64,000 bases of DNA from a virus. Lineage: Duplodnaviria > Caudoviricetes. Both the position numbers and the translations under genes were made by a program. Shown piece after piece: positions 2,953 through 50,555 of the stretch. Every line of letters begins with the position of its first letter. Within the stretch, counting starts at the first letter, position 1. The notes beneath the pieces are model-generated. The model was not told the origin of the DNA, ran no database searches, and saw only the letters and a program-made list of their open reading frames with translations. The stretch is taken from the IMG/VR virus record IMGVR_UViG_3300013947_000022, positions 1 through 64,000 of that record; one strand, 5' to 3'.

Positions 2953-4149
2953 TTGAGGATAATGATGAATACAACGATAAAAACAATTCGAGTGATGTTA
3001 CTCCTAAATAACAAGCAAAAAACTAAATTATTTCAATATGCCGACACTGCTCGTTTTGCTTATAATTGGGCTTTAGAACGAGAACGAGAAAACTATAAAA
3101 ATGGTGGGAAGTTTATTTCGGATGGAGATTTGCGAAAAGAATTTACACAGTTAAAGAGAACAGAGAAATATGCATGGTTAAATGATATTTCAAATAATGT
3201 AACTAAACGGGCAATAAAAGACGCTTGTAATGCTTATAAAAGATTCTTTAGAGGACTTGCAAAGTTTCCTAAATTCAAAAGTAAAAAACGCTCTACACCA
3301 TCATTTTATCAAGATAATGTGAAAGTTCAGTTTACTGATACACACATGAAAGTAGAGGGATTTTCTGTTTCTAAAAAGAAAAACAAACAGAAATTAAACT
3401 GGATAAGATTATCAGAACATAATTATATTCCAACCAATTGCAAATATTATAATCCCCGTATTAAATTTGACGGTATAAATTGGTGGATTACAGTTGGAAT
3501 TGAATATGAAGATATTACCAAGATTCCTTCAAACGAAGGTATTGGAATTGATTTAGGGATAAAAGATTTAGCAATATGTTCTGATGGCAACAAATATCAG
3601 AACATAAATAAAACTCAAAAAGTTAAAAAGATGGAAAAAAGAAAACGCAGGTTACAACGTTCCATATCAAGAAGATATGAGAAAAATAAGAAAGGAGAAA
3701 GTTACTGTAAAACAAGTAACATTATAAAAAGAGAAAAAGAACTTTTAAAAATAAATCACAGATTAACGAATATCCGTCAGAACTATTTACATCAAATAAC
3801 ATCTGAAATCATAAAGCGAGAACCAAGTTTTATTTGTATTGAAGATTTGAATGTATCAGGAATGATGAAGAATAGACATTTATCTAAAGCAATTCAACAA
3901 CAAAAATTTTATGAATTTAGACGACAGATTAAGTATAAATCTGCGTGGAATAATATTCTTGTTATTATTGCAGATAGGTTTTTTCCAAGTTCTAAATTGT
4001 GTAGTTGTTGTGGAACAATCAAAAAAGATTTGAAACTGTCAGACCGTATTTATAAATGTGAATGTGGCAATATGATTGATAGAGATTATCAGGCAGCTTT
4101 AAATTTGAAAATATATGGAGAAAATGTTTTAAAACAATCTGTAGCATAA
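2953..4149 (+). CDS. tnpB: TnpB RNA-guided endonuclease (IS200/605/607)
   Basis: ARFAYNWAL, RuvC GIDLG / IEDL / DRDYQAA, CSCCG-CECG zinc ribbon; catalytic D-E-D intact; no in-frame TAG. Confidence 0.93.
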   Translation: MRIMMNTTIKTIRVMLLLNNKQKTKLFQYADTARFAYNWALERERENYKNGGKFISDGDLRKEFTQLKRTEKYAWLNDISNNVTKRAIKDACNAYKRFFRGLAKFPKFKSKKRSTPSFYQDNVKVQFTDTHMKVEGFSVSKKKNKQKLNWIRLSEHNYIPTNCKYYNPRIKFDGINWWITVGIEYEDITKIPSNEGIGIDLGIKDLAICSDGNKYQNINKTQKVKKMEKRKRRLQRSISRRYEKNKKGESYCKTSNIIKREKELLKINHRLTNIRQNYLHQITSEIIKREPSFICIEDLNVSGMMKNRHLSKAIQQQKFYEFRRQIKYKSAWNNILVIIADRFFPSSKLCSCCGTIKKDLKLSDRIYKCECGNMIDRDYQAALNLKIYGENVLKQSVA

Positions 4150-4319
4150 CACTTTCAAGTTAATACAGATATGTACTGATACGTTAGTCAGGAATTTACG
4201 CCTATAGAGTGTACAAGAACTTGTGAGTAAATATTGTAGAAATACAAATTGAAAGCATACACGATGAAGTAGGAATGAAACATAAAAGTTTACAACTTTT
4301 TATAAGTTTTCAGTAACGG
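4150..4319 (+). ncRNA. probable TnpB omega-RNA scaffold
   Basis: Non-coding region between the tnpB stop and the right end, the canonical omega-RNA position; fold not verified. Confidence 0.6.
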
Positions 4320-19702: not shown

Positions 19703-20713
19703 ATGATAATCTCAAAAGAACTTGAACAAAAGATAACTGTTTATGAACAAGCCTACTTTTAGACAGACGACCCTGTTCCGTTTAAGGGAGGGTTAAAAGT
19801 TTATCCTGTTATGGCACGAGATTACTATAAGTTTTATAGTACGCTTGGCTGTTTAACATAGGATAAAACAGTAAAAAAAGTTAAATATACTGACGAAAAT
19901 GGAATCGAAAAGGAAAAAGAAGTTGCGAATCCAGAAGGAATTGCAATGAGCTATATGAATTATTTAATAAAACAAATGGAAGATGAGAAAATTGGTGGTT
20001 TTGTAACCAGTCAAGTAATTCGGATATTTGAACTTTGCTTGCATGAGAAGAATCGGTTATATTGCCCTAAATGTGGCAAGAAAATTGAGGATGAAGAGAT
20101 TGCAAAAAAGTTGTTGGAATTAGATAAGGAAATAGCTGACCTTGGAGAAGAAGTTTCCGATTAGGATAAATAGCTTAAAAAACTGTAGATGATACAGTCT
20201 CTTAGTGTTTGCGAATGTGGAGAATAGATGCGTGAGGTTTATAGTATAAGGAATGAGAATGGGCAGAAGAACTTGGCTATTAAAGATGTAATTTTGACTA
20301 ATAAAGATTTAGAAGAGCTCACTGCAATTATCACACATTATAATATTCTTGATTATGATGGAGACAAATATATTGACCCTAATTTGAAAAAAGATTTGGA
20401 ACTAAAGAAGTAGCTGGAAAGTAAAAATTACACTTCCCCCAGTCTTGAAAAACAATTAGTGGGTGTTAGTATAAGCAGTCCTTATCATATTGAGGAATTA
20501 AAAGAAAATGTAACACTAAGGAAATTAGCTTTAATGCTGAAAATGATAGACTCTCAAAGGACATATTATGCTTAGATTCAAGGGCAGATGTCGGGAATGG
20601 TAGAATTTAAGACGCCACCTCTCCATTGGCTTTATGGTAACGACAAGAAAGATATGTCTAAGGAGATTATGTCGTTAAACGATGTTTAGAAAAAATTTGC
20701 TGCTGTAACTTAA
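19703..20713 (+). CDS. hypothetical protein with zinc ribbon, possible tail assembly chaperone (~8 TAG)
   Basis: Single 336-aa frame if TAG=Gln; CPKCG...CECG. Confidence 0.65.
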
Positions 20714-31238: not shown

Positions 31239-32230
31239 TGGGAAAGCAACCTTATAATAAGATTTATACTCCTGAAAAATGGGATAATGTTAATCAAGAA
31301 AATAAAAATTTAATAGATGATTTTATTACAGAATGTAAAGCTAAACGCAGGTCTGAGGGAACGCAAAAATAGTATTTTGCAGATTTACGTCGTGTTGCAA
31401 TTTGGGTTTTAGAACATTGTGATAATGAATCTTTTTTAAAATTAACAAAAAGAGATTATCGTAGATTTATGATTTATTGTCAAGATGAGTGGAATATGAG
31501 CGCGGCTCGTTGTAACAGAATTTTGAGCGCTGTTCATATGATGTTGGATATGGCAATGGAAGATGAAGATTTATATGAAGACTATGAACGTAATGCCAGT
31601 GAAAAAATAAAAGGGGTTCCTAAAGATAACGTTAGAGAAATTACTTTTATTCCAGATGATGAAATTAAAATGCTTTATGACAAGCTAATGAGTGAAGAGA
31701 GATATAAAGAAGCAACTTTATTAGCAATTTTATACGATTCAGGGGTTAGGCGCAATGAAATTCTTCAAGTAAAAAGAACTGATATTGCCGACGACAAAAA
31801 TTCAACTGATACTGTAGTAGTAGGTAAACGTGGTAAGAAGTTTAAGGTTCTTTATTTTTCTCGTACCAAAGAAGCTTTTAAAAAATATGAGGCAACACGA
31901 ACAGATGATAGCGAAATGTTATTTGTTAATAGTGAAAATAGACCTGCTACAGCAGGAAATATTTATGAGTGGATTAAAAAATGGGGAGAAGAACTTACTG
32001 AGCTTACGGGAAAAGATTATACTCGGCTTAGTCCACACTCATGGAGACATTGCTATGTGAACAATATGCTTGATGGAAGTCATTATTTATGCAAAGAAAT
32101 GAATCTTCGGGCAGTTCCTTTGGAGAAAATTAAAACATTAGTTCATCATTCAAGTTCGCAGACCACGTTATCCTATGCGTAGAATAACGAAGATAAAGAT
32201 ATTGAGGATTTGTTTGGAATTACATTGTGA
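31238..32230 (+). CDS. tyrosine recombinase (XerC/D-like)
   Basis: SGVRRNE (R), GKRGK (K), PHSWRH (HxxR), VHHS, TLSY (Y). Confidence 0.88.
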
Positions 32231-33886: not shown

Positions 33887-36800
33887 ATGGCTGATAATAA
33901 TATACTTAATAGTGTATCTTCTTGGGTTATACAAATTAAGAAAGAACTTGATGCACAAATTAAAAGTGAAATTGCTGGAATTGAAAGCAAATATGGTTTA
34001 ACATCAAGTCGTACAAAAGATAGGGCATTTAATAAACTTTAGAATTTAAATACTTATTACCAAGCTATGTTGGATAGAGGAGAGTATTTAGGTTCAGACC
34101 AAATTATGCGAGCAAAAGCTGATTTAAAATTGGCGTTGCCTTCAAATCGAAATGGGATGTCGGATTTGGGCGGAATTTATTAGAAAACCTATGATTTAAT
34201 TGAAGCTCTTGCTACAAAAACTGAAAAACAAGCGCAATATGCAACCCGATTGGAGGCGGCAGTAAAGTCTGAACAAGCTGACCAAATAGCAGAATTAAAA
34301 GATTACAGGACAAGAATTGAAAAGCGTTTGGATGTTTTGGATAATCAAATTAGTTCTGCTTTCTTTTCAGATAATAAGGTTGGAGGAGCATTGGATGATA
34401 GAGCTTATTTAAGAGAGCAAGCCGCGCTTTCTACTTTAATTGGAGAACGTTTTCCCGCAATTGTAGAAAAAGCTGTAAGAAGAGCATCTAATCCTACTCC
34501 TAAAACTTCTCAGACAAAAATGCAGACTTCTAAAGTTATTACTCCTAAAATGTACAAAGGCACAACTTCGAAGACTCGCACAAGTGTACGAGATAAGGTA
34601 AAAGTAAATGGGCAAAAAGGAGCTTATAGTAACTTTTTAACGGTAGCTGAGAATTGGCTTAAAAAACAAGGAACTAAAGCTTGGGACCTTGAAACTACAG
34701 GCTTAGATTTAGTAAGTGATAAAGGCGTAACTTTTGGTTTTGGTGATTATGGTAATCAAAAAAGTTATTTTTTAGATGCTGGTAAAAAAAGTGAAACAAT
34801 AAAAAATATTTTATCTGCAATAAATGACAAGGCTGATGAGTCTGCTAAACAGTTAAGAAAACAGTTAGGTTTTTCTACAGATACTAATAAAAAAATATCA
34901 AAAAGTGAAGTAGAATCTGTTTGGGGAGAAATTAAAAAGCAATTAATTACTCCTGTTGATGCGGCTAAAATGATGATGGAAGCCATTGATAATGGCGGTT
35001 TGGTAGGCTGGAATAGTGAAGGATATGACCTTCGTATTTTGGAGAATAATTTTTCTCAATATTTGGGAAATGTAAGTGAGGCAAAGCGAGCTGCGGCAGA
35101 AAAAGTTATTGCGGAATTTAGAATAAAATCTGCAAAACAAAGAGATGCAATGCTCAAAAGTTCTGAAACAATGGTATCTCGTTCTGATTTCGGAAATGTA
35201 AAAAAGGGTGATTCTCTTATATAGGGTGTTAGAGGAGGTAACACTCTTCAAAGAATGGCAAGGATTATTAGTGGTTCTGAAAGTTCTGGTGCTCACGAAG
35301 CTCGGTCTGACGTTAAAGATACCCTGCTGGCTTATGCAATGCAAAATGTTACAAATGTACAACAAGTAATTAGAAGCGTAATTGAAAAAGGTTTGAAAGA
35401 CCTTGAAACAAGCGGGAATGCTGTAAAAGATTCTAATGGAGAATATACGGCAGTAGCAAGAGAATTTATTACTGAGACTCTTGATAGCTTAAGTGGTATT
35501 TTTGTAGACAATCCTGATTTAGAAAAAGAATTACTTTCTAAAGGGGCTAATACTGTTTCTGCTGATGCGCAAATTGATGCCTTAAAAGCAGAAATGACAA
35601 AAGCTCAAAAAGAAGCTTTTGAAGGAAAAGAACTTCGTAGTCGTTTTGCTAAAGCAGGGAAAGATGTTTCTAATATTACTGGGGTAGGAAAAGGTCTTGG
35701 TACCCACGAAAGAAAATTAAGAGACCTTATTAGAACTGCCGCTGAAAAGGGGTATGTTACCAGTTTAAGAATAAATGGCGATAATTATGATATTCGTTTA
35801 ACTCCTATTTCTGATTATATAGATGAAAATTCTATTGACTGGGAAAATGCAGAAAATCAAATTCAATGGAATGTTTCTCTTGCAGAAAATGGACGTATCG
35901 TAAACAAGATTGATACAATTCATGCGGCTCAGGAATGGGTAGGAAAAGTTCCAACAACTATGCTTGAAACAGCATCCGCTAAACAGCTTGATGTTGCTTT
36001 GGGTATGCTCAAGTCTGATAAATTTGGCAACGGAGACAGAACAAATGATGATTATTCTCGTATTTTTGGTAGCGCTGGTAGACGTGCTATTAATGGTTCT
36101 TTACCTGTAATTGCAGGGGATGAAGACTTAAGAGAATATCTTACAACTTATCAAGGTGAAAAGACTCCTACTGAAATAATTAAGTCGATGAAAGTTTCCT
36201 TTAAGGAATACTTAATGCGGACTTTAAGAAATTCTAAGATTCAAAAGGTAATTTCAGATTATTACAAAAAGTCTAATCCATATTATCAATTTAATATTGA
36301 TGATATTGGAGCAGAAGTAATGAATACAATGTTGGACATCTTTATTAGAGGCGGTCGTTACGGAAAAGAAGCAATGTTAGCAGGAGCGAAAGAGGATTCT
36401 TTGCTAAAAATGCTTCTCGAAAGTGACGAAATGAAATATTATATTAAAGATGCATGGAATCTTATTCAATCAACTGGAATTACTAATAGCGCTTATAGTG
36501 AAGGCAGTTACAAAAATGCTCAATATGGTGCTTTGTCTCAAACAGATTTGACAGCTTGGAACTTTGTAAATGATATGACCCAACGTGATGTAGCACAGGC
36601 TTTAAATGCAAGGAGTCTTACATCAAGAGCTGCTGATGCGCGTCAAGGATTAAGTGGACCAGCATTTAGAACCAAACAAGGCACTGCTATGGGAATGGAT
36701 TATGAATCTCCTATGCAGAAGATGTTTTAGGTTATGCAAATCCCAGAGCAAGTATTTTATCAGGCGGCAAGAGCTTATTTTGAAGAGCTTGGAATGACAG

Positions 36801-39800
36801 GAGAGGATTTAGAAAATTCTATTCAGAGTTTGATGGATAGTATTATTCCTTCTCTTAAAGTTATTGAAGCTACTGAAAGCTATCAATACAGAGCGTCAAG
36901 AAATACTGATGTAAATGATATTGATGCTGGTTTCCTTGCGGCTTATGGAATTACTCCTGAGATGTTAGAAAAAGAGCAAACAATCGACCTTTCTAACTAT
37001 GAAGTAAAAGAGGGAGATTATCTTAATTTTTCTAAAAAGTTTTCTTTTAATGTGGGTGATAGACTTACAGGATTAGTAAAAACTTTAGATGGTTGGAAGC
37101 TTCAAACTGATTCTCTTTCTAAAACTCAACAGGGTACTAAGCTTACACTTGGATATGGTGGGCGTATGTCTATGGGTGGTGGAAATGACCCAGCTAAGAT
37201 GTTTGCTTATATCCAGAAATGGATTGCGAATAATTGGCAAAATTCTCCGTATTCAAAAGAAGCAATTATGTCTGCGGATGCTTTTGTTGAAGAAAGAACT
37301 TCACTAAAAGAGCGTAATGTTTTACTTGATTTTGCTGGTAGACTTTCTACTATTGTTAATGCTTTAAAAGCTGAGGGCGTCGCGCAAAACGATACAGATG
37401 TATTAAATCTTTTAAGTAAAGAAAATGGTATTTTCTCTCGTATTTTTGAAATAGATAAAAATGGTAATCTGTCTCAAAATGTAAGATATGATATGGCAAA
37501 TACTCGCTATGTTAATGGAACAACGGGAGATGTAATTTTTAATACGGCTGAAGAAGCCGAAAAACTCCTTTCTGGTTTGGATGAACTGGGAGAGGTTTTG
37601 TTAGGACAAAATTGGAGCAATTACAAAGGATTGCTTTCAACTACAATTGGACAGCAAGATGTCGCTCGTTACGCTACCAAAATAAGTGGTGGCGGAGCTT
37701 ATACTCCTTCTATTGCAGATGATTTTAAAGTTATTAATGCTGAACGTCATACCACTAAGCGTTTTGGTTCTGCGGCAATGGTTGGTATGACAGACGAAGA
37801 AAAAGAAAGAGCGCAAAAAGGCTTAAACGCTATTCTTGCGGCGAATGAAAAGCTTAATAAGGCTTTTACCCCTGCTGAATTAAAAGCTCAAAAAGATTTC
37901 CAACAATTAATTGACTCTCGTAAATCTTTAGATAAAGGTGGCTATACTTCCAACGGAAAAGATATTGAATTTGTTTCTAAGAAAGATTTTAGCGAATTAA
38001 AAGAGAATCAAATTTATATTGAAGATATTGTTACAAGTTTCCAAGATGCTGTTAAAAACGGTAAAGTTTCTCAAGATGACTATGAGAAATTTGCAATGGA
38101 AGTTGCTCGCAAGAAGAAAGACGAACTTGGAGATGCTTATAAAGATGCTAACATTGCTCTTACAAGAGCAAGAGGTAATGAACTTGGCAATGTAATGCTT
38201 GCTAATCTTCAGGGTGGACATGATAATGATTATAATTATTATGTTACTCCTCTTGAAAGACAGCAAGGAAGATTACTGCAAGCTTATGCTAAGTTTGCGA
38301 ACGCTACAGAAGAAAATGAAAAACAAAGGTTAGCGGCTTTTGAACTTGCTGAAAAAGAGTATGCAAATACTGTTCTTGAATATATAAGCAATAAAGATTC
38401 TGAAATTAAATATAAAGCCACTCATATCAGTCGTGCTCACTCTGGTTGGGCTATTGCTCAAGGTGGAGCATTTGATGAAAATGCCGCAACTTCTGAATAT
38501 AGTGCTGAAAAGGCAAGACTTGCTAATACAGTAGTTATGTCTGAGAGTCGTGTTCGTAATATGTTCAGGTCCGAATCTGGTTCATCAAAAGACCAAATTG
38601 CAGATAATTTGTTGGCTTTAATGAATCAGTTTAAATTAAGAACAGGCAAAGCATTTGATTATGGTTTTTATGACAATGATAATAATTATCATGCTTTATT
38701 TGCTAAAGATATTAAAGATGGTAATTTTACAAAAGAGCAATTAGCTGAAGCCGAAGCTCAGATAGTAGAAGATATAATCACCGCTATTAAAAAGGGTAAT
38801 AGTAACTTTAAGACTAAAATGGGTCGTTATCCTTATAACCAAGGTGGCGAGGGCATAAGCTCTCACATTGCTATTGGTGATGTTGGTGACGATGTTGTTC
38901 AAGTTAGACAAGGCTTGGCTAAATATTTGCATGGTGACTTCGATGGTGACTATTACAGAATGGTCAGTAACATCTTTGATGAACAGTATGGCAAAGATGC
39001 TTATAACATGGAACAAATTATGCAGGAGCTCTATGACAAACAAGTTTGGTTAATGAACAAATGGGCAAGCATGGAGAAATTAAGCGAAGCTCCTGATGCC
39101 GAAAGTCGTAGAGCAGATATTGCCAAAATAGCTAAAGGCTGGGTAACTAAAGACGATAATGAATTTGCTTCTTTAGTTGGTGGCTCTAACTTCCAAACCA
39201 TTGGTTCTTTCTCTCAAAGTGCAACTAAAATGCGTGAAGCAATGGAGGCTTTAAATTATACTACTGGTAATATGTCTACTGATGCTGACATGGAGAAAGA
39301 ATTTAATGCAGATGTTGTTAAATCTTTCTTACAACAGCTTGAGCAAGATGCTATTTCTTCTAAGAAAATTTATGCTCGTCTTCAAAAAGTAAGACAAGAT
39401 AGACATCAAGACGATAGTAAAGAAGCTGTAGCTTCAGATGTTGCTAAATTAATTGAAGCTCTTAGAGGCGGTGACGTTCACAGTTATATTAATTTGTCTA
39501 AAGAAATGGGTATTTGGGATGAAACAAAAGCAGACCAACCCATTCAAGCTTTAAGAGCTCGTTGGTTAAGTACAGATACTCAAAGAGATTTTCTTCGTAG
39601 GAAAATTGGTGTTGATTTTGCTGATGTTAATAACGCAAAAGCAAATCTAACTGACCAGCAAATTGAAGCTTCTTTTGGACACGTTGGACAATGGTTTAAT
39701 ACTCATGGCGGCGTTACTTTAGCTGATGCTACTACATGGAACAAAAAGATGGCTGAAGTAGCTGGTCGTGACTTTAATGGTAGAGAATATCTTAGATGGA

Positions 39801-42800
39801 AGAAATTCAATATTAGTGGGACAGAAATGGATGAAAATGGTAATCCTGTTCCTCCGTCTGGTAGTGGACTAAATGGGTCTATCAATTCCAATGGCGATAT
39901 TGTAATAAATACTTCTGGTAATGTTCTTATTAATGCTCAAGGTAATGTAGCGGTTAATACTAATGAGATTGTTGCTCAGATGGCTGATGCTGCTAAACAG
40001 GGGATTGAACAAGGTACGGCTTCAACGCTTAGAAATGATAATGGTAAAATTATCCATGAGATGCGTAATGAAAGTGGAAAATATGTTTCGCCTGAAGTAA
40101 CATGGACTGGTGTAACACCTCCTGACCCGAAGACTCATGCCATGACCGTAAAGATGAATGGTAAGCTTTATGGTAAAGATGATATTTTCTCTGTTACTGA
40201 GGCGTTGAATCATGATGCTCCGTTAAAACCGTGGGATTAGGAAAAATTGCACACGTCTTCTGTAATGGGAACTTATGCTCACAGAATTGCGTAGGAATTA
40301 GTTAATACGGGTGAGACTTCTGTTGATAGTTTTAGCGATTCTGTAAACAGCGAGCTTAGGGAAATTATAGGTAAATCTGTAAGTGAGGGTGGTCTTAACA
40401 TGACCTCTTCTGACCCTAAAGCGCAAAAACAAAGACAATTAGCTGAATTAGCTGTTGCGAAGGCTCGTGAAGCAGGTATAGTAAATGATAATACCATAAC
40501 TGAAAGAACTATGGCTGGTTTATTTGGACAGCAAATGTTTGCTGGAACAATGGACGCTTTAACTTATAATAAAGATACTGGCTTTGCAGTAAATGACTGG
40601 AAGTTTTCCAAATCTGGTGGTCCTGAAGATATTCAAAAACGTGGCGAGCGTATGTTGCAAATGCAAGTGTATTTTACAATGTATGAAAAAGCTTTGGAAA
40701 AACTTTCTAATCAAGTTTTTGAAGAGGGTAAAGAGATTACAGCCGAAGATGCAAAATGGTTTGGTTTAGAGGGAAATGATAGCTCTGAATGGGCGAACGA
40801 TTTAACTGAAAGATTAAATCATATTCGTAAGGGCAATGTTAAATTTGCTAATACGAGAGCTTTTGAACAAGATGGGCAATAGATTGTTGAAATTGTCACT
40901 TCTGGATTAAATGTGGCTATGAGCATGGAAGAAGTAGCTGAAATACTTAATAAAGGTATTAAGGGCGAAGCTATTCCTTGGGATGAGATTGCTAAAAAAT
41001 ACGGAGTAGATTCAATTAAGGCGTCTCTATTTTCTGTAAATGGTAGCAATCTTAGCAATGAAGTTCCTCCTGTTATTCAGAAAATGATGGATAAAAAAAA
41101 TGCGGAGAGAACTTCTGGTGGTTATAACACAAAATCCATAAATGATTATCTTAAACAGTATAAACAAATTCTAAAAATTCAAGAACAAATTGATGCTGAC
41201 GAAAAGCGTCTTGCGAGTTCTGGAATGAAAGGCGAACGTGCAGATAACATTCGAAGTGTTGTCAATATGCGTAAACGTTTGCTTGGTCAACTGCAAGCTG
41301 AAGTGCCTAATTTAGATTTAGAAAATGGCACTCTTAATGGGCAAAAACTTTCTGAAGAAGAGTTGATTAAATTAAAGAAAGAAATTGCTTTGCTTGATTC
41401 TAATCACGGTATTCAACTTGAAAAGAATAATTCTTTACAAAAACAAAGTGTTGGATTAGTCCAGCAAATTGCTCAGGGCTTTAAAGCTTCTTTCCGTAAC
41501 TTAACAGATTATTCAATGGCTTATATGGTCATTGGTAAGATTAGAATGGCTTTTAGTCAGTTGATTAATTATGCTGAACAACTTAATGCTTCTATGGTTG
41601 ATTTGCAAATTGCAAGTGGATTAAGCTACAGCAATATTAAAAATATGATGCTTGACTTTAATGACCTTGCTGTTAAAGTAGGTAAGAGTACGCTTGAAGT
41701 ATCTCAAGCCGCAAACGATTGGCTAAGAGCGGGTTATGAAGGACAAGATGCCGCAACTCTCGTTGAAAATTCAATGCAACTTAGTACGCTTGGTATGATA
41801 AACTCTGCCGAAGCAACGGAATATTTGATTAGTATGCTCAAGGGCTGGAAGCTTCAAGTTAATGAAGTTAGTTCAGTAGTAGACAAACTCGTAGCTGTTG
41901 ACATGAGTGCTGCGATTTCGGCTGGCGATTTAGCAACAGCGTTGGCAAGAGCTAACACAAGTGCGCAATTAGCAGGTAAAATTTGTGCCTGAGTATATGG
42001 TAACATATACTATAGTATCAACCTAAATCGGTTAAAACCTCTTTTTAGAGACAAGACCGAGATAACTTTTATTAAATAAAATCTAAGTTTTATTATATAT
42101 TTTAATATAAAATTGCAACAAAAGGAGGGAGTTTTGTTGCTTATAAATGAAAAAATGACAATAATTCCAACCAGTAGAAATAAAAAATGGTATTTAGAGA
42201 AGGGATACCCAGAAGTTCCTTATCTATCACCTTTAGAAATAAATTCAAAGGATATAAGCCTTCACAGTAAAGCTTTGATACATTGGAAATGCGACTATTG
42301 TGGAGAAGTTCAAGAAAGTAAGGCTTTTATTTATTTTACACAGGAAAGAGATATTGTAAATAAAGATTGTTGTGTAAAATGTGCTCCATTGAAAGCATAG
42401 GAAGTTTATGAGGCTAAAACTGGATATAAGAATAGTTTTAGTCAACCTCGGTATCATGATATGCTAAAAGAGAAAATGAAAGAAAAATATGGAACAGAAT
42501 ATTATCTTAATAGTGAAGATTGTAAACAAAAAACAGAAGAGTATTTACAAGCACATAACGCAACAAATGTAATGCACATTCCAGAAGTAAAAGAATCTTT
42601 ACGAAAAACTGTGCAAGAAAAATATGGGGTGAACTGCTGTTTTTAGAATGAAGATATTAAGGCTAAAATTAGAGAAACCAATTTAGAAAAATATGGCTTT
42701 CCAAACGCAAATCAAAATCCAGAGATTAAAGAAAAGAATTTAATTAACAGAAATAAAGCCATAGAAAAAACTCGGAATGTTTTAACGAGTAAAGAGCAAG

Positions 42801-45800
42801 TTCGACTTTGTAAATTGTTTAATTGCTCAGTTAATAAGCTAATGACATATTATTTTTTGGATGGGTATTTTGAAAAGGAACAAATTTATTTTGAATATAA
42901 TGGAAGTGGTCATGATTTATCGGTTCAAATAGGAGCTATTACTGAAAAGGCTTTTAAAGCAAAAGAAGCTCGTCGTTATCATTATCTAAAGACACTTGGA
43001 TTAAAAGAATTTTGTGTTATTAATACCAAGAGAAACAAAGTTCCAGTAAATGACGAGATAATGATGAAGATTAAGCAGTTTTCTTTTAATGAGTTAGAAA
43101 AGGATACTATTAACTGGGTAATAGTAGATTTTGATAAAAAAATATTAAAAACAAAATTCCAAGAGTGGACTTTGGAAGAATTAGATTTTATTTAATAAAA
43201 GTATTGTAACGACCAGAATCAGGTTGGCTCCTCTTATCACTCTAAGAGGATGAAGGTATGGTCTGAACTATATGGTGACATATAGAAAAGAGGTCAAGTG
43301 TAAAGACACTTTAAAGAAGAACCTCTTTCGCCACAATTTATTATTGTGGTCAGTAATTCCTTTTAATGGAATGAAAGTAACAGAGTGTCAAGTTTAGACA
43401 ATTATATTGCGTATACAACTGTTGTTGCTGAAACTACTCAAAAGAGCGCTGAATCGGTGGGCGAGTCCTTTAAAACGTTATATGCACGTTTTGGTAAAAT
43501 AGCGGCGGGTAAATTTGAAACTTCTCAAGAAGAACTTGAACAACAAGGATTATCTTCTGAAGATATGTCAAATTTAAATGAAATCGAATAGGTATTAAAA
43601 GCTGTAGGAATTGAATTGAGAGATACTCCTGAGCATTTTAGAGACATAGATTCGGTTTTGGCTGAAATTGCTGGAAAATGGAATACTTTCTCTGATGTTC
43701 AAAAATCTGGTATTTCTACGGCTGTTGCTGGTACTCGTTAGAGAGAAAATTTCTTAGTTTTGATGGAAAACTGGGACAATGTTGGTAAATATGCTGAGAT
43801 AGCGGCCAATGCTTATGGTACAGCGGTAGAAAAGATGGAAGCTTATTCACAAGGTGTAGAAGCAGCTCGCAAGCGTGTACAAGCGGCGTGGGAAGGCTTT
43901 GCATTAATTGTTAATGAAAGTGGATTACTTGAGACAGCATTTAATGGCCTTGCAACTGCTATTGAAAATATTCACTGGATTATTTTGGCTGCTATAACTT
44001 CATTGGTAGCAAACAACCCCGCTGGCGCTGCCGCAACTCTTTCGCAAGCATTTACAAAACTTAGTTTAACATTAGGCTCTGCTGGATTGGAGCAAAAGCT
44101 TGGCTTAGTAGGAGATTCTTAGGCTACTATTGAAGCGGCAAAGCAAGCTCGTATTGATATGGCTGATGCAGCGTTTATTAGACAGAAGTAGATGCTTTGG
44201 GGAGATTATTTAGGTAAATTTAAAGGTGGCATGAATGATGAGCGCTTTACTGGATTTACTGAATATCAAAGTGGATTAATTGGATTAGATAAAACAGACG
44301 AAAATGAAAAGTTTGTTGCTGGATTATCAGGTTTTGTTTCTGCATTGCAAGCTGGAGAAAAGGGCACAACATTGGCTACAGAATCTTTAGAATATTTAAG
44401 AAAAAATATTGACGAGGGTAAAGCTCAAATTTTGTTAAATACTGTTTCCAAAGAAACTGCGAATACCTTAGTTCTTTCTTAGAAAAAGACTATTGAGCAA
44501 GGAATGACAGAAGAACAACTTGCTGACCAAACTACAATTTTAGCTGAAGCTCGTAAGAGGGCGGCAATGCAGTTGCTTGATGATATGGGCGCTGAGAAGA
44601 GTCAATATTACAGCGAGAGTGACAAGAAAGTATTTACTACTGCAACAGGTAGTGCTCAAAAGTCAAGAAGCCAATCCCGTCAAAAATTAGCCGTAAGTGC
44701 TATGGGAAGTCTTTTTGGAAGTATTGCTGGTGGGTATGGCGGAAGTAAAGGTCTTGGCAGCATTTTTGCAAAAGTTGGGGGAGAAGAAGCTCGTAGTGCT
44801 GGTGAAAGTATTGGTTCAATTATTGGTATGGTAGCGGGACAGAAAGCTGTTACTACTTTAATTTCAACTTGGGGAACTAAATTAACAGGAAGCGCCGCTT
44901 TAACAGGTATTGTAGCACCTTGGGCGGCTGTTATTGCTTTAGTAGCTGGAGCTGGTTACGGTATTTATCAGCATTTTAAAAAGAAAGCTATACAAAAAGC
45001 CCAAGAAGAATTTAAAGAGCTTAAAGACACTTATGAATCTCAACTTTCGGCTTCCACAAAAACAACTCGTTATGATGAATTGTCAGAGGGAGTAGACCAG
45101 TTTGGACGTAATGTTTCCTTGACGGATGAAGAATATAGTGAATTCTTGTCTACTTCTAATGAACTTGCGGAGTTGTTCCCTGAATTAGTAGTTAGGACAG
45201 ACGAGGCTGGCAACTCTTTCTTGGGCACTGCTGGTAAAGTTGGCAAACTTACTGAAGCTGTTGACGAGATGGTTAAGGCTTCTCAAAAGGCGGCAGATGT
45301 TCAATTACTATCTGATAATGTTTTTGGCGAAGCTTTTAAAGATGCTAAAGCGTCCTATAAAAAGAACTCTTCTGGCATAGAACAACTTTAGGAGGAAGTG
45401 GCAAAGGGAGGATATTGGTCTAATACCTTTAAACTTGGATAGGCAGGTCCTTCTCAAACCTTTACTGCTTATAGTAAAAAAGAGCTTGAAGAGAAGAAGT
45501 CCGAAATAAAATCTATGGAAGAAGCGTCTCGAAATGCGCTGTCTTCTCTCACCGACTACAACAACGCAATTATGCGTGAAGATTTCGGTCTACAGGCAAC
45601 TTTGTCTTCTATGTCCGAGGATTCTGCAATTTTGGCAAAACAGACAATGCAAAAAGTATTCTCTTCTCTTGATTTAACTGAGTATGCTAATGAAGATGAG
45701 TATCGTGCTGATATTGAAAAAATATCAAACCAGATTGCAGATGCTTACAAGGAGAATCCTATTTTAGCTACTCTTGAGGTTGAAATGGGAAGCTCTGCAA

Positions 45801-48800
45801 CTTCAGGTGAGTATTATGAAGCGCGTCAATAGATTCTTGAAAATCTTATTCAGGCTTTTGGTGGATATGCTGACTTGGACGACGATGAAAAGAAGATTCT
45901 TATTAAGCTTGGTTTTGAGATGGATGATGATGGTAATTGGTTTGATGCAACAGATATTCGCAAAAAGATTGAAGACGAGGGGCTTGGTGCGAAATTAAAT
46001 AATGTTAATCTTGATGCGTTTTCAAAAGATGATTTGGAAAGAGTTTATAAGATTCTTAACGGCTCTACTTTTGGAACAACCTTTAATACAGAACAACTTC
46101 AACAAGCGGTATTTGCAGATAAATATTCCGATGCGGGGCTTTCCAAGCTCGTTTCTCTTTATAAGAATTATGCTGATGAGGAAGATTTAACTCCCATCGA
46201 GCAAAAGAATAAAGAGTTTATTGAGGGTAAACTTGATGGTTGGGCTAAAGAACTTGGTGTTGTTAAAAACGATTATAAAGATATTAGTGATTATTATGAT
46301 GCGATAATCCATAAAGCTAAAATTTATGGCGATATTGATAGTGCTGGAATGTCTCAGGAAACCCCAGAAGAAGTTAAAGACCGTATGGACAAGTACGCTA
46401 AATATTATAAATTTATTCGAGATGAGTATTCTAAAACAGGAAAGTGGGATTTAGATACTTACAATGAAATGATTAAAGATAAAGATTTGCAAGGATATTT
46501 AGCAAACAATGATGTGAACGGTTTAAGTAAATTCTTAGAGGAGACCTTAAAAGACGCTCCTAATATTTATAAAAATGCCTATCAAGCAATTCTTTGGGAA
46601 AATGAAGACATTAACAAAGAAATGCAAGAAAAACACAAAGAAACCTACGAAGAATTTGAAGAAGATTATGGGTTTGACTTAACTAATTTTACCACTTTGA
46701 CGGCTGCAAAAGACGCGATTAATTCTTATACAAATGGTTTAATGACCAGTAATTACGAACAGTGGAAAAATGCGTTGGCTTCAATCTATCAAGAAGATTT
46801 GGCTCAATTTACTTCTGCGGCTATGCAAAAAGCGGCAATGAATAATCTAATAATGGATTCGTTGGAAATGTCTGATTCTGATAAGCGTATCTTTTTGAAC
46901 CAAACTTCTGCTGAGTGGAAAGCCGCAGGCGGCGAAGAAGGAACTGGCTTAACTTTGTCGGATTATAGAAATCAAGCGCTATTTAAGAAAGACCAAGAAG
47001 TAAAGACTGCGGCTTTTAAAGATGGTTTACAAGGATATGCTAATGCAATAGGAGAAGCGTTGCAAACTGTTGCCAATCTTATTCCACGGGGAGATGTTAA
47101 TTATGACACTCTTGATGATGGTACGTCTCAATTAGGTAAAGAAATAGAGCGTATTGAAGCTCTAATTGGTATGTACCAGAAAGAATATTATCTCCGTAAA
47201 TCTTTAATTGAGCAAGGTAATCTTACTGCTGAAGGACAAGATTCCTTCATGGGTCCTGAGTATTATGACCGTATGCGTAGTGCTTATGAAATGCAAGCGA
47301 ATTATTATAAACAACGTATTCCTTGGGATAAAGATATAAGCCAATGGTCTGCTGAACAAATGGGTTATTATCAGAAGTATCAGCAAGCAATGATAAATCT
47401 GAACAACCTCGATGATGAACAGGTGGAAGATAAAATCAACATTTTATAGCTTCAGGATGTCTCCTATGACCAGCTTATCGCGGCTCAGGAAGAGTTAATT
47501 AAAACTTCTGATACCTTGGAAGAACAGATTACTCGTGAGAATGAGCTTAATAATCTTATTAAACAACGCTATGAGCTTTATAGAGATATTGCAAGTTGGC
47601 AGAGAGAAATGTTGGATATTGCTCTCGAATATGAGAGTGGAAGTCCTGATACTGCCTTGTATGCTGACCTTGTTGGTCAAAAGAAACAGAATCTTGAAAA
47701 TGAGATGGAAGCTGTTAAGCAAAGAATGGCTGAAATCCAAGATTCTGACCGCAAGGATAAGCAAGAAGAGCTTAGGAATCTTGCCAAACAGTATGCAGAA
47801 CTTTATAAAGAATATGCTACTGTTGATATTGATGTTCTTAATGATAAACTCGATGTTCTTGAAAGAAGACTGGATTTGCTTGAAAAGAGCAAACCTCAAG
47901 AGTGGGCAAAATATGATGATATTGCACCTTATTATCAGCAGAATATCGGTTATCTTGAGCAAAAAGCCTCTTTAATTAGAGAGCAGCTTGAAGATGTTTC
48001 AATGCTTACTGATGAGCAAGTTCAAGATTTGGTAGACCAACTTAATGATGTGACTGTAGCTTTGCATGAAGCTCAAATGCAATTACTGGAAGACCAAAAG
48101 AATTATAAGGAAAGTCAATATGACGCTTTGGTGTCTAAGGTTCAGGAATATATTACTGAGCTTGAAGATGCTATGGATGAGATTGAAAAAGCTTATGAAG
48201 ATGAACTTAAGCCTTTGGAGCAAATTAACGAGGAATTAGAAAGACAGGCAAAACTCGAAGATTTGCTTGCTGCGAAGAAACGTGCGGCGTAGGAGAAGGA
48301 GAGAGTATATCGCGAGGGAATCGGATGGGTGAAATGTTTGCCCAAAATGGACTATATCGGTTAAAAACCAGAGATGGTTAAGACCGAAGTAAGACTTTTA
48401 TTTGTTTGAAAATAAAAAAGAAAGGAGGAGAAAATGGATTATCATTTAATTACTGATGAAGAAATTGCAGAAAAAGCTAAAAAATTAAATGTGGAAATTA
48501 TTAGGCGTTTTAGTCGAAATGGACATAGTTATGTTGAAACACATTGTTTAACTCATCCTAATAAACCCAATATAGAAGTAGAATTATATAATTTTTTAAA
48601 TCGAAATACTACTTGTGGTTGTCTGTTACAAAGGTACACAATAGAAGATTTAAAAAATAATCCTAAAGTGAGACAAGATTTAGAAATTATTGGAGAATAC
48701 AAAAATAATTCTACGCCAATAGAATGTTAGTGTAAAGTATGTAACTATAAATGGTTTGTTAGTCCTAACAAATTGACATAGGGTAGAGGATGTCCATTAT

Positions 48801-50555
48801 GCCATTCTAAGAAAATGTCTTCAGGAGAAAGATATATTAGTAAGATATTATAGGAAAACAAAATAGATTTTATATCTCAAAAAATATTTCCTGATTTAAA
48901 AGGGGGAAACAAAACTCGTTTACGTTTTGATTTTTTCTTACCTGATTTTAATTTATGTATTGAATTTTAGGGAATTTAGCATTATTAGCCTACAGTTTTT
49001 AGAATAAATAGAAAAAATAAAACGAAAGAAGAACTTTAGGAAGAAGCAAAGAAAAAATTCGAAAGAAGTTAGATAAATGACAAGAAAAAAGAAATATATT
49101 GTCAAGAAAAGGGTATAAATTTATTGGTTGTTCCTTATTATCAAAAAGAAGACATTGAACAAATAATTTTAAATAAAATCAATCAAATAAAAGAAACTCT
49201 AACGACTGCGGGATGTTAATGGTAACATTAACATTGAAGTCCATTCTATTGAAAAATAGTAATATACAGTCTGAACTCACACTATAATCTAAAGATGAAA
49301 TGTGAGAAGCAGGATGAAAGTCCTGCTCGCCTTTATTAATATTTTAATAAAGGTCATAAAAGCAACAGAATGATACGAATCCCCTCGTTCTAAACAACGC
49401 GAGGCACAAAAAGACCTTGATACATTCAATCGCCAAGACCGCATTGACGACCTTACAGGCACGAAAGATGCAGAAAAAGAAGCTCTTCAAGAGAGAATAG
49501 ATAATCTTAATCTATACCTTAAAGCGCTTGAGTGGAGCTGGAATGAAGCTGAACGCATAGAGCGTGATAGACTTCTTGCCGAAATGATGAACATTGACGA
49601 ATCTCTCTCTAACGAAGAGATTCAAAAAGAGATGCGTCAACGTATCATGGATGATATGCAAAACTTTATTGAAGTCCAAAATAATGATTATCAGAATTAT
49701 CTTGGTATCTTCTCTAATTTCATTAATTCTTATACGCAATTAGTTCTTCAACTTGCAGAGCTTCAACGTCAAGCGCTTTCATTGATTGATTCCAGTCAAT
49801 ATTTAGGCTCGAATGCTGGTGGTTCATTCTCCATCACTGGTGCAACAGGTGGTGGCGGTTTTGGTAATGCACTTGACCGACTTGATAGTGGAGTGGATTA
49901 TTCTCGTGATTTCCAAGCTGAGATTAATGCCGCTCTTAAAGACCCACGGAATTATGGTCCTGATGGACAATTAAGTGCCAACGGCAGGGCTCATTTAGCG
50001 AAACTTGAAAAGTATCGCAACGAGAAAATCGACTTGGGGCTTGGTGGCAATTATGAAAAGACTTATAACTACACTTCAACACGAGACGGAAGCTCTTCTG
50101 GTGGCGGGGGCAATAAGACTTCTTCCAATAGTCCTTATAACTCCAAAACAGATTATAATAACGAGTCTAAATACCTTGATAATCTTATCAAAAATGGCTC
50201 TGCTGGTCAAAAAGCTTGGGCTCAAAATTAGAAGAAGGAACTCGACAAGGCTCAAAAAGGATATGCCGATGGTATTGAAAATGGTCCTGTCACCTACACA
50301 GGTTTATCAATGCTTCATGGTACACCTTCTGAGCCTGAATACGTTCTCAATTCTGACCAAGCATATAATCTCCTGCGCAATTTGGCAACGACCAGAATGC
50401 CTGAGTACACTTCTACTTTGACTCAAGACATGGGTGTTTCCTATGTTATTCAAGGTGATGTGGTGCTTGAGAATTGTGACGACCCAGCACAATTCTGGAA
50501 TCAAGTAATGGCAGCAACACATAATCGTTACAACGTGACGAAGAATAAGCGTTAA
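33887..50555 (+). CDS. giant tape measure polyprotein (~4,738 aa), 3 exons: 33887-41977, 43388-48330, 49373-50555; N-terminal exonuclease, RNAP-like and nuclease domains
   Basis: All track fragments in each exon share a frame and are broken only by TAG; TP901-type TMP core (WLRAGY, VVDKLVAVD, VGESFKT), GIGWV|YE junction, C-terminal YADG...LHGTPSEPEYVLN. Confidence 0.85.
41978..43387 (+). mobile_element. group I intron in tape measure gene, with endonuclease ORF
   Basis: P1 CAGGT/GCCTG with U-G, P7 GACCA/TGGTC, terminal G; restores AQLAG|SSLDNYI. Confidence 0.85.
42137..43195 (+). CDS. intron-encoded Zn-ribbon/KYG-repeat Vsr-like endonuclease
   Basis: CDYC..CC..C, KYG repeats, YFLD..YFEYNGSGH; same architecture as 22073-23143. 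Confidence 0.78.
48331..49372 (+). mobile_element. second group I intron in tape measure gene
   Basis: P1 TGGGT/GCCCA, P7 GACTG/CAGTC, terminal G; restores GIGWV|YESP. Confidence 0.85.
48434..49219 (+). CDS. intron-encoded Zn-ribbon + DUF559/Vsr-like endonuclease (8 TAG)
   Basis: GRGCPLC, SSGE, LRFDFFLP, CIEF(Q)GI(Q)HY. Confidence 0.82.

Follow-up and report, generated by a model that had tools for sequence, protein, structure and literature searches.

A predicted two-barrel RNA polymerase and nuclease domains carried within the tape measure protein of a large TAG-recoded gut phage

We describe here a giant tape measure protein (TMP) gene found in a 64,000-nucleotide stretch of viral DNA (the window; positions 1 to 64,000 of IMG/VR record IMGVR_UViG_3300013947_000022, Duplodnaviria; Caudoviricetes), which belongs to a genome of 215,374 bp that is 99% complete. 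When TAG is read as glutamine and two introns are removed, window positions 33887-41977, 43388-48330 and 49373-50555 join into 14,217 nt that encode 4,738 amino acids with 18 TAG codons and no other stop, exactly as a preliminary description of this DNA had reported. This spliced open reading frame (ORF), which ends in a normal TMP, is confirmed as a real observation. Its N-terminal ~2,500 residues would represent an enzyme cargo made of an exonuclease insert, a single-chain RNA polymerase (RNAP) at residues ~880-1960 and a PD-(D/E)xK nuclease at residues 2117-2271. The roles assigned to tape measure proteins before 2024 were those of ruler and pore former; given that an RNAP core is built into this one, the phage is likely to inject a transcription enzyme of its own. 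We consider it likely that the gene yields one spliced TMP whose cargo, a two-barrel RNAP with nucleases, is built into the tail, ejected, and transcribes the genes that enter first. The arrangement belongs, as a variant, to a kind whose first characterised case, in 2024, was gp96 of the Thermus phage P23-45 (Chaban et al. 2024, Nat Commun 15:317, PMC10770324), and is no categorically new system.

With TAG as glutamine, positions 33887..41992 form a single 2,701-aa frame (P0001) that holds seven in-frame TAG codons and neither TAA nor TGA. Under code 11 the same region is split into ORFs of 324, 491, 1,168, 160 and 359 aa, and the fusion is hidden, as the preliminary description had pointed out. 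In-frame TAG codons are present in many long ORFs of the + strand of the window. Furthermore, the TAG at residue 2332 is replaced by CAA in the relative L001, which is 93-96% identical, while three further TAG positions are unchanged there. On the evidence of the reading frames, the phage reads TAG as glutamine. A break of the ORF seen in L001 was traced to a run of N in the scaffold and is no stop codon. The tRNA genes called by ARAGORN in a cluster at ~104-112 kb of the genome, outside the window, are only tRNA-Gly(UCC), tRNA-Arg(CCG) and tRNA-Ile(UAU), plus doubtful intron-bearing ones. CGG codons number just two in exon 1 (residues 473 and 778), and none of the catalytic positions of the polymerase or of the PD-(D/E)xK domain is among them.

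The TMP part was identified by Pfam, for which PhageMin_Tail (PF10145) is the sole domain of P0001 proper, with 41.5 bits against a cut-off of 33.2. The match starts at residue 2593, behind the ~2,500 residues that had been placed ahead of a normal TMP core, and eleven TMP PHROGs match the same C-terminal end. An exhaustive HMMER search with residues 950-2117 gave only 12 representatives, four of them full-length (2,473-2,946 aa, 24-31% identity); a profile search added P0017 to P0021, and in IMG/VR 15 loci were found on contigs of 27-217 kb. P0005 and P0006, which are 25-31% identical to the window protein and come from gut metagenome contigs of ~52-218 kb, have the TMP domain as their C-terminal end, and P0021 (4,121 aa) is continuous, with PDDEXK_1 and a full TMP domain. 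Moreover, relatives that use the standard code carry the RNAP-like region in a single stop-free ORF (L017, 3,703 aa; L018, 2,412 aa; L019, 2,215 aa; L020, at least 5,522 aa; L022, 2,328 aa), and in L017 and L020 a complete PhageMin_Tail lies downstream of it in the same ORF. Hence, the fusion is independent of the recoding argument. The cargo precedes the TMP without exception among the homologues, whichever of the two codes they use and down to 17% identity. The fusion to the TMP is genuine, which bears out the earlier claim. P0005, P0006 and the window also have a neighbourhood in common, in which the giant gene is preceded by a beta-CASP gene, ClpP, a tyrosine recombinase and two small ORFs and followed by a DUF7487 intron ORF and then TMP exon 2. 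When the RNAP regions from the window, from L018 and from L020 were used as tblastn queries, none of 50,697 GenBank phage records matched.

The RNAP-like motifs lie where the preliminary description had placed them, namely GTKLTLGYGGRM at 37133, GRYP at 38822 and GDFDGD at 38933-38950. In an alignment of 19 sequences with identity down to 17%, the catalytic part shows R1647, P1649, D1684, D1686, G1687 and D1688 as invariant, so that the conservation of DFDGD in homologous TMPs, proposed as a check, was found; G1773, S1776, R1783, E1819, Q1820, I1823, S1824, K1826 and K1827 are also invariant in the same 19 sequences. The family motif string can be written hRYPstsG...(n)aD[FY]DGDk, with vGqFSn and EQDaISaKK after it. 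In the upstream module, all of 17 sequences share K1085 and R1093, and G1057 and G1069 are likewise invariant. The motifs being invariant in homologues down to 17% identity, the observation goes far beyond chance, and the invariance of the metal-binding aspartates, of RxP and of the barrel lysine and arginine across very divergent sequences points to selection on catalysis. When the profile of residues 1600-1900 was compared with all Protein Data Bank (PDB) sequences, a single match fell under E 0.001, the vaccinia rpo147 (E 7e-4), with the alignment falling on FGRQPSLH...ISPGIANSQNADFDGDE, i.e. RxPS...NADFDGD. With the same profile a beta' piece of the phiKZ non-virion RNAP (nvRNAP) aligns at the same site (E 0.5), and L017 gave a sub-threshold match to the baculovirus RNAP subunit LEF-9 across its DFDGD region. 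A phmmer search of the whole protein against PDB sequences gave only noise, and a feature search of the ESM Atlas with residues 1000-1950 was uninformative, its best score (0.76) being to an unrelated family. A 336-aa ORF at 19703-20713, with nine in-frame TAG codons and the string NILDYDGDK, was considered as a further RNAP and rejected, as it shows no similarity by family hidden Markov model (HMM) and no Pfam match; the likeness of NILDYDGDK to the RNAP metal loop is probably due to chance.

The fold was next assessed on predicted structures, which were built on shallow alignments and in which the details of the clamp and of the bridge helix are tentative. The AlphaFold2 model of residues 960-1960, made from the family alignment, displays a pLDDT (predicted local distance difference test) of 71.9 and a pTM (predicted template modelling score) of 0.62. 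In Foldseek all 50 of the 50 best matches of this model are RNAP largest subunits, with a probability of 0.97-1.0. A search of 48,161 representative chains by a method other than Foldseek ranked RDR2 (9.4), Mycobacterium tuberculosis beta' (8.8) and QDE-1 (8.4) at the top, followed by Pol II, Pol I, AR9, the plastid PEP, archaeal RNAP, vaccinia and phiKZ, with P74 gp62 (6.4), crAss phi14:2 gp66 (5.2) and P23-45 gp96 (5.1) lower in the list. The VIA alignments extend through beta' to residue ~1320. Isolated double-psi beta-barrel (DPBB) domains match model residues 559-736 with a root-mean-square deviation of ~2 Å, and model helices 840-864 and 866-879 correspond to the region of the invariant EQDAISSKK..R (residues 1799-1838), a pair that may represent the bridge helix. 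Taken together, two predicted structures match RNAP beta and beta' respectively, and one finds a beta'-like barrel with DxDGD preceded by RxP and a second, beta-like barrel whose conserved basic residues face the active site. Given that each of two independent halves matches another catalytic subunit, the first one beta and the second one beta', the models provide strong evidence for a complete two-barrel RNAP core at ~880-1960, and the RNAP-like domain announced in the preliminary description is upheld by motif invariance, by the rpo147 profile match and by the two structures. In the models a clamp seems to be kept in the connector at ~1300-1641.

Downstream of the polymerase, the RecB/Cas4-type nuclease holds up well. 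Residues 2080-2300 match PF12705 (PDDEXK_1) with 28.9 bits, above the cut-off of 22 (E 1.4e-6), and the motifs GTYAH (40268), GTMD (40544), DWKFS (40595) and QMQVY (40658) are in place, with H2132, D2223, D2237, K2239, Q2258 and Y2262 invariant in nine sequences. The best PDB match of the profile is 4ic1_A (E 0.0019), which we take to be Sulfolobus Cas4 SSO0001. The domain resembles the Cas4/RecB nucleases (PF12705, PDB 4IC1) in GxxxH, GxxD, DxK and QxxxY and differs from them in being embedded in a tape measure protein. The PD-(D/E)xK HMM matches TAG-recoded members only and not L017-L022.

The DEDDh exonuclease claimed for the N-terminal part stands with moderate support. Its motifs were found at their positions (WDLETTG at 34682, WNSEGYD at 35009 and HEARSD at 35294; D267-x-E269, N376..D381 and H470-x4-D475), and all three recur in a homologous domain at the N-terminus of one other family member (L015:5771-6670; MYDLETTS ... 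FNNHNFDD ... HSGEDD; phmmer E 0.0026), but the database matches to phrog_192 (E 0.0035) and to PF13482 (E 0.008, below its cut-off) are weak, and the sole phmmer match of the region in the PDB, to Geminin, is due to chance. The insert is absent from P0019 and P0020, which are 51-60% identical, and from most other members. Region 266-475 is probably a lineage-specific accessory exonuclease. The cargo of the family is modular, P0008 having at residues 355-677 an unrelated insert of ~320 aa where the window protein has the exonuclease insert.

The preliminary description had stated that no characterised TMP-RNAP fusion was known. This statement is outdated because gp96 of P23-45, characterised in 2024, is a 5,002-residue TMP with an N-terminal two-barrel RNAP and DFDGD at 779-783 (structures PDB 8H2M and 8H2N; PMC10770324). 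It is virion-borne, active in vitro and transcribes the pre-early genes; its polymerase is flat and clamp-less, features that the authors tie to passage through the tail tube, and they propose that it works at the TMP pore during DNA entry (PMC10770324). No further paper on a TMP-RNAP fusion was found, and the titles and abstracts of the papers that cite this work mention no such gut-phage family. Both proteins, of 5,002 and 4,738 aa, carry in one polypeptide a two-barrel RNAP with DFDGD N-terminal to the core of a giant TMP. However, the polymerase stands at the N-terminus of gp96, whereas that of the window protein, at 880-1960, lies behind ~880 other residues, and in contrast to the clamp-less gp96 it has, according to the models, a clamp-like connector of ~340 aa. 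Unlike gp96, the window protein also adds the PD-(D/E)xK nuclease and, in its own lineage, the DEDDh-like exonuclease. Furthermore, P23-45 possesses a non-virion RNAP, gp64, while no second RNAP was found in the genome of the window phage, which differs as well by its mesophilic gut setting, TAG as glutamine and a gene split by introns.

By analogy with gp96 and with general TMP biology, the protein would form part of the tail and, when infection begins, be ejected into the envelope of the host, where the TMP core would form the DNA entry channel. The polymerase, tethered at this entry pore as in the model drawn from gp96, would then transcribe the phage genes that enter first, while the nuclease or nucleases may act on host or phage DNA ends. 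What the analysis shows is the ORF, the fusion, the conservation of the catalytic residues and the predicted folds; that the protein sits in the virion and is ejected, that its polymerase is active and what its nucleases do are inferred.

Several observations weigh against a recoded TMP that delivers an active polymerase. ARAGORN detected no suppressor tRNA for TAG (CUA anticodon) in the whole genome, whether run at its defaults or permitted to call intron-bearing tRNAs, and the sequencing-run search listed no RNA-seq run containing this phage. Pfam RNAP families do not recognise the RNAP-like region, and the profile of the beta-like module matched only designed repeat proteins among PDB sequences, with no match to beta. 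In addition, the connector here appears bulky and clamp-like compared with the flat, clamp-less gp96, which makes it hard to see how a multi-domain cargo of ~2,500 residues would fit into the tail or get out of it. The silent Pfam models, the missing suppressor tRNA and the separate ORFs obtained under code 11 would fit a degenerate structural relic, or separate proteins made because TAG is a stop. This explanation is very improbable and largely refuted, since the three metal-binding aspartates, RxP and the barrel lysine and arginine are all invariant, 2,697 codons run without TAA or TGA, the TAG at 2332 is CAA in L001, standard-code homologues are uninterrupted and TAG is in frame in many long + strand ORFs of the window.

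The bulk of the clamp-like connector, which fits passage through a tail tube badly, also counts in favour of a reading in which the cargo is cleaved from the TMP, either by itself or by the ClpP-like protease of the phage, and then travels as separate internal virion proteins or acts only in the producing cell. The fusion would in that case serve co-expression and packaging and would not tether an enzyme. A ClpP-family protease is indeed encoded in the same structural module (27113-27763), and TMPs and ejection proteins are often proteolytically processed. We regard such cleavage as unlikely: the cargo-then-TMP order is constant in all homologues, to 17% identity and in both codes, no cleavage site was identified in the window protein and, for P23-45, the legend of Fig. 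1e indicates that virion proteins were western-blotted with antibodies to the first 1,050 residues of gp96 (PMC10770324). It could also be that the polymerase is active but has a mainly mechanical or priming function and not one in gene expression: anchored at the TMP pore it would pull the genome in, or else it would make RNA primers or copy RNA templates. Genome entry driven by transcription is known from the T7 RNAP, and QDE-1 and RDR2 act on RNA templates; we nevertheless give this version only a small chance compared with that of an uncleaved TMP whose ejected RNAP transcribes the first-entering genes.

As to the origin of the polymerase, both halves find their best structural matches in the beta and beta' subunits of multisubunit RNAPs and in derivatives of these (the AR9 and phiKZ non-virion RNAPs, vaccinia rpo132 and rpo147). 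They have in common with the window protein the beta-then-beta' order and the RxPS...NADFDGD spacing, and rpo147 is the only significant sequence-profile match. Unlike them, the window protein holds both modules in one chain within a tape measure protein, is missed by the Pfam Rpb1 and Rpb2 models and has a core of ~1,100 residues compared with ~2,700 for beta plus beta'. By hhalign, only the catalytic loop of the family aligned with gp96 residues 1-1200 (E 0.026), the similarity to YonO was at the motif level only (E 0.35), and the structural scores to gp96 are about half of those to beta and beta'. No specific kinship of the family to gp96 is seen, and an origin of the fusion independent of gp96 is plausible. 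Searches of the phage's own genome with Pfam Rpb1_2, Rpb2_6 and T7-type RNAP models gave no match, and the family HMM found no second (paralogous) RNAP in the 215 kb; the T7-type result is uninformative because this search was silent in the control genomes too. A fuller scenario, which we put forward tentatively and hold to be possible rather than probable, is that of a second, independently evolved TMP-RNAP fusion, in which the TMP of large gut siphophages of Firmicutes type took up a cellular-type beta-beta' core, akin to the multisubunit clade and not to that of gp96, gp64, crAss and YonO, along with a Cas4/RecB-like nuclease, and delivers this core as the phage's only RNAP. If this is true, the tail ruler would deliver a multi-enzyme first-strike package for transcription and for DNA end-processing or attack on host DNA.

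A gp96-like arrangement is thus present in unrelated, widespread gut phages of ~120-220 kb as well, both TAG-recoded and standard-code, which suggests that TMP-borne polymerases are a recurrent strategy and not an oddity of Thermus phages. The polymerase of the gut-phage group looks nearer to cellular beta/beta' than gp96 does, and it offers for study a compact fused beta-beta' RNAP of ~1,100 residues; it also raises the question of how a clamp-bearing enzyme passes through a tail tube. For annotation it carries a warning, as under code 11 the gene breaks into at least five pieces on which Pfam RNAP models are silent.

Table 1. Coordinates of the tape measure gene, its predicted domains and its introns in the window.
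Feature	Position	Strand	Details
Exon 1 of tape measure gene	33887..41977	+	residues 1-2697, 7 TAG as Gln
DnaQ-like DEDDh exonuclease-like insert	34682..35311	+	residues ~266-475
RNAP beta-like module	36524..37786	+	residues 880-1300; DPBB ~997-1096, invariant G1057, G1069, K1085, R1093
Connector between barrels	37787..38809	+	residues ~1300-1641, ~340 aa, probably clamp-like
RNAP beta'-like catalytic DPBB	38810..38968	+	residues ~1642-1694; GRYP (R1647, P1649), GDFDGD (D1684, D1686, G1687, D1688)
Long helix pair after catalytic barrel	39281..39400	+	residues ~1799-1838; invariant E1819, Q1820, I1823, S1824, K1826, K1827, R1831
PD-(D/E)xK nuclease, Cas4/RecB type	40235..40699	+	residues 2117-2271
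PhageMin_Tail (TMP) domain, first half	41663..41977	+	PF10145 E 1.7e-10, residues 2593-2697
Intron 1	41978-43387	+	1,410 nt; starts after T, ends in G; borders from intron-less L016
Exon 2, TMP body	43388..48330	+	
Intron 2	48331-49372	+	1,042 nt; borders from continuous L002 exon and shared intron ends
Exon 3, TMP C-terminus including stop codon	49373..50555	+	48-64% identity to C-terminus of continuous L002 TMP

The intron borders were set by comparison with relatives in which the gene is continuous. Amino acids 2490|2491 of the 4,328-aa ORF of L016 align to window 41977|43388, and amino acids 1822|1823 of the 2,273-aa exon of L002 align across window ~48331|49374. Both introns have similar 5' and 3' ends, beginning after T and finishing in G, and each contains an ORF, a DUF7487 endonuclease-like one in intron 1 (42113-43195; PF24308 E 2.5e-11) and a CapR-domain one in intron 2 (48434-49219; PF21817 E 1.5e-6). 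Rfam gave no group I match (RF00028) at either TMP intron site even at E 1; elsewhere in the window it finds three group I introns and one group II intron. Intron 1 cuts PhageMin_Tail at profile position 111 of 201. Among relatives the TMP domain is split at two or more different sites (window 41978-43387, L001:5727-7336, L002:17423-19078). In L001 the intron lies ~29 codons upstream, after VVDKL (~residue 2668), and its ORF is of the NUMOD3 endonuclease type and not DUF7487. P0005 and P0006, which have DUF7487 ORFs, break off at position 87 of the PhageMin_Tail profile, and L016, P0021 and L017 are without an intron at the TMP-domain site. No clean intron-less joint was found in the contigs of four DNA runs. 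One public-run contig joins the 3' parts of both TMP introns (43332 to 49351), skipping 6 kb; this junction is most likely an assembly jump, which fits the similarity of the intron sequences (GTCTGAACT ... AACAGArTG).

The structural module also encodes a tyrosine recombinase (Phage_integrase with a SAM-like N-domain) at 31235-32230, two genes ahead of the TMP gene, and its position is the same in the distant relatives L002-L005. Elsewhere in the window, a TnpB gene (OrfB_IS605 plus Cas12f1-like TNB) occupies 2953-4275, with a RAGATH-18 RNA called by Rfam directly after it (4201-4275, 67 bits).

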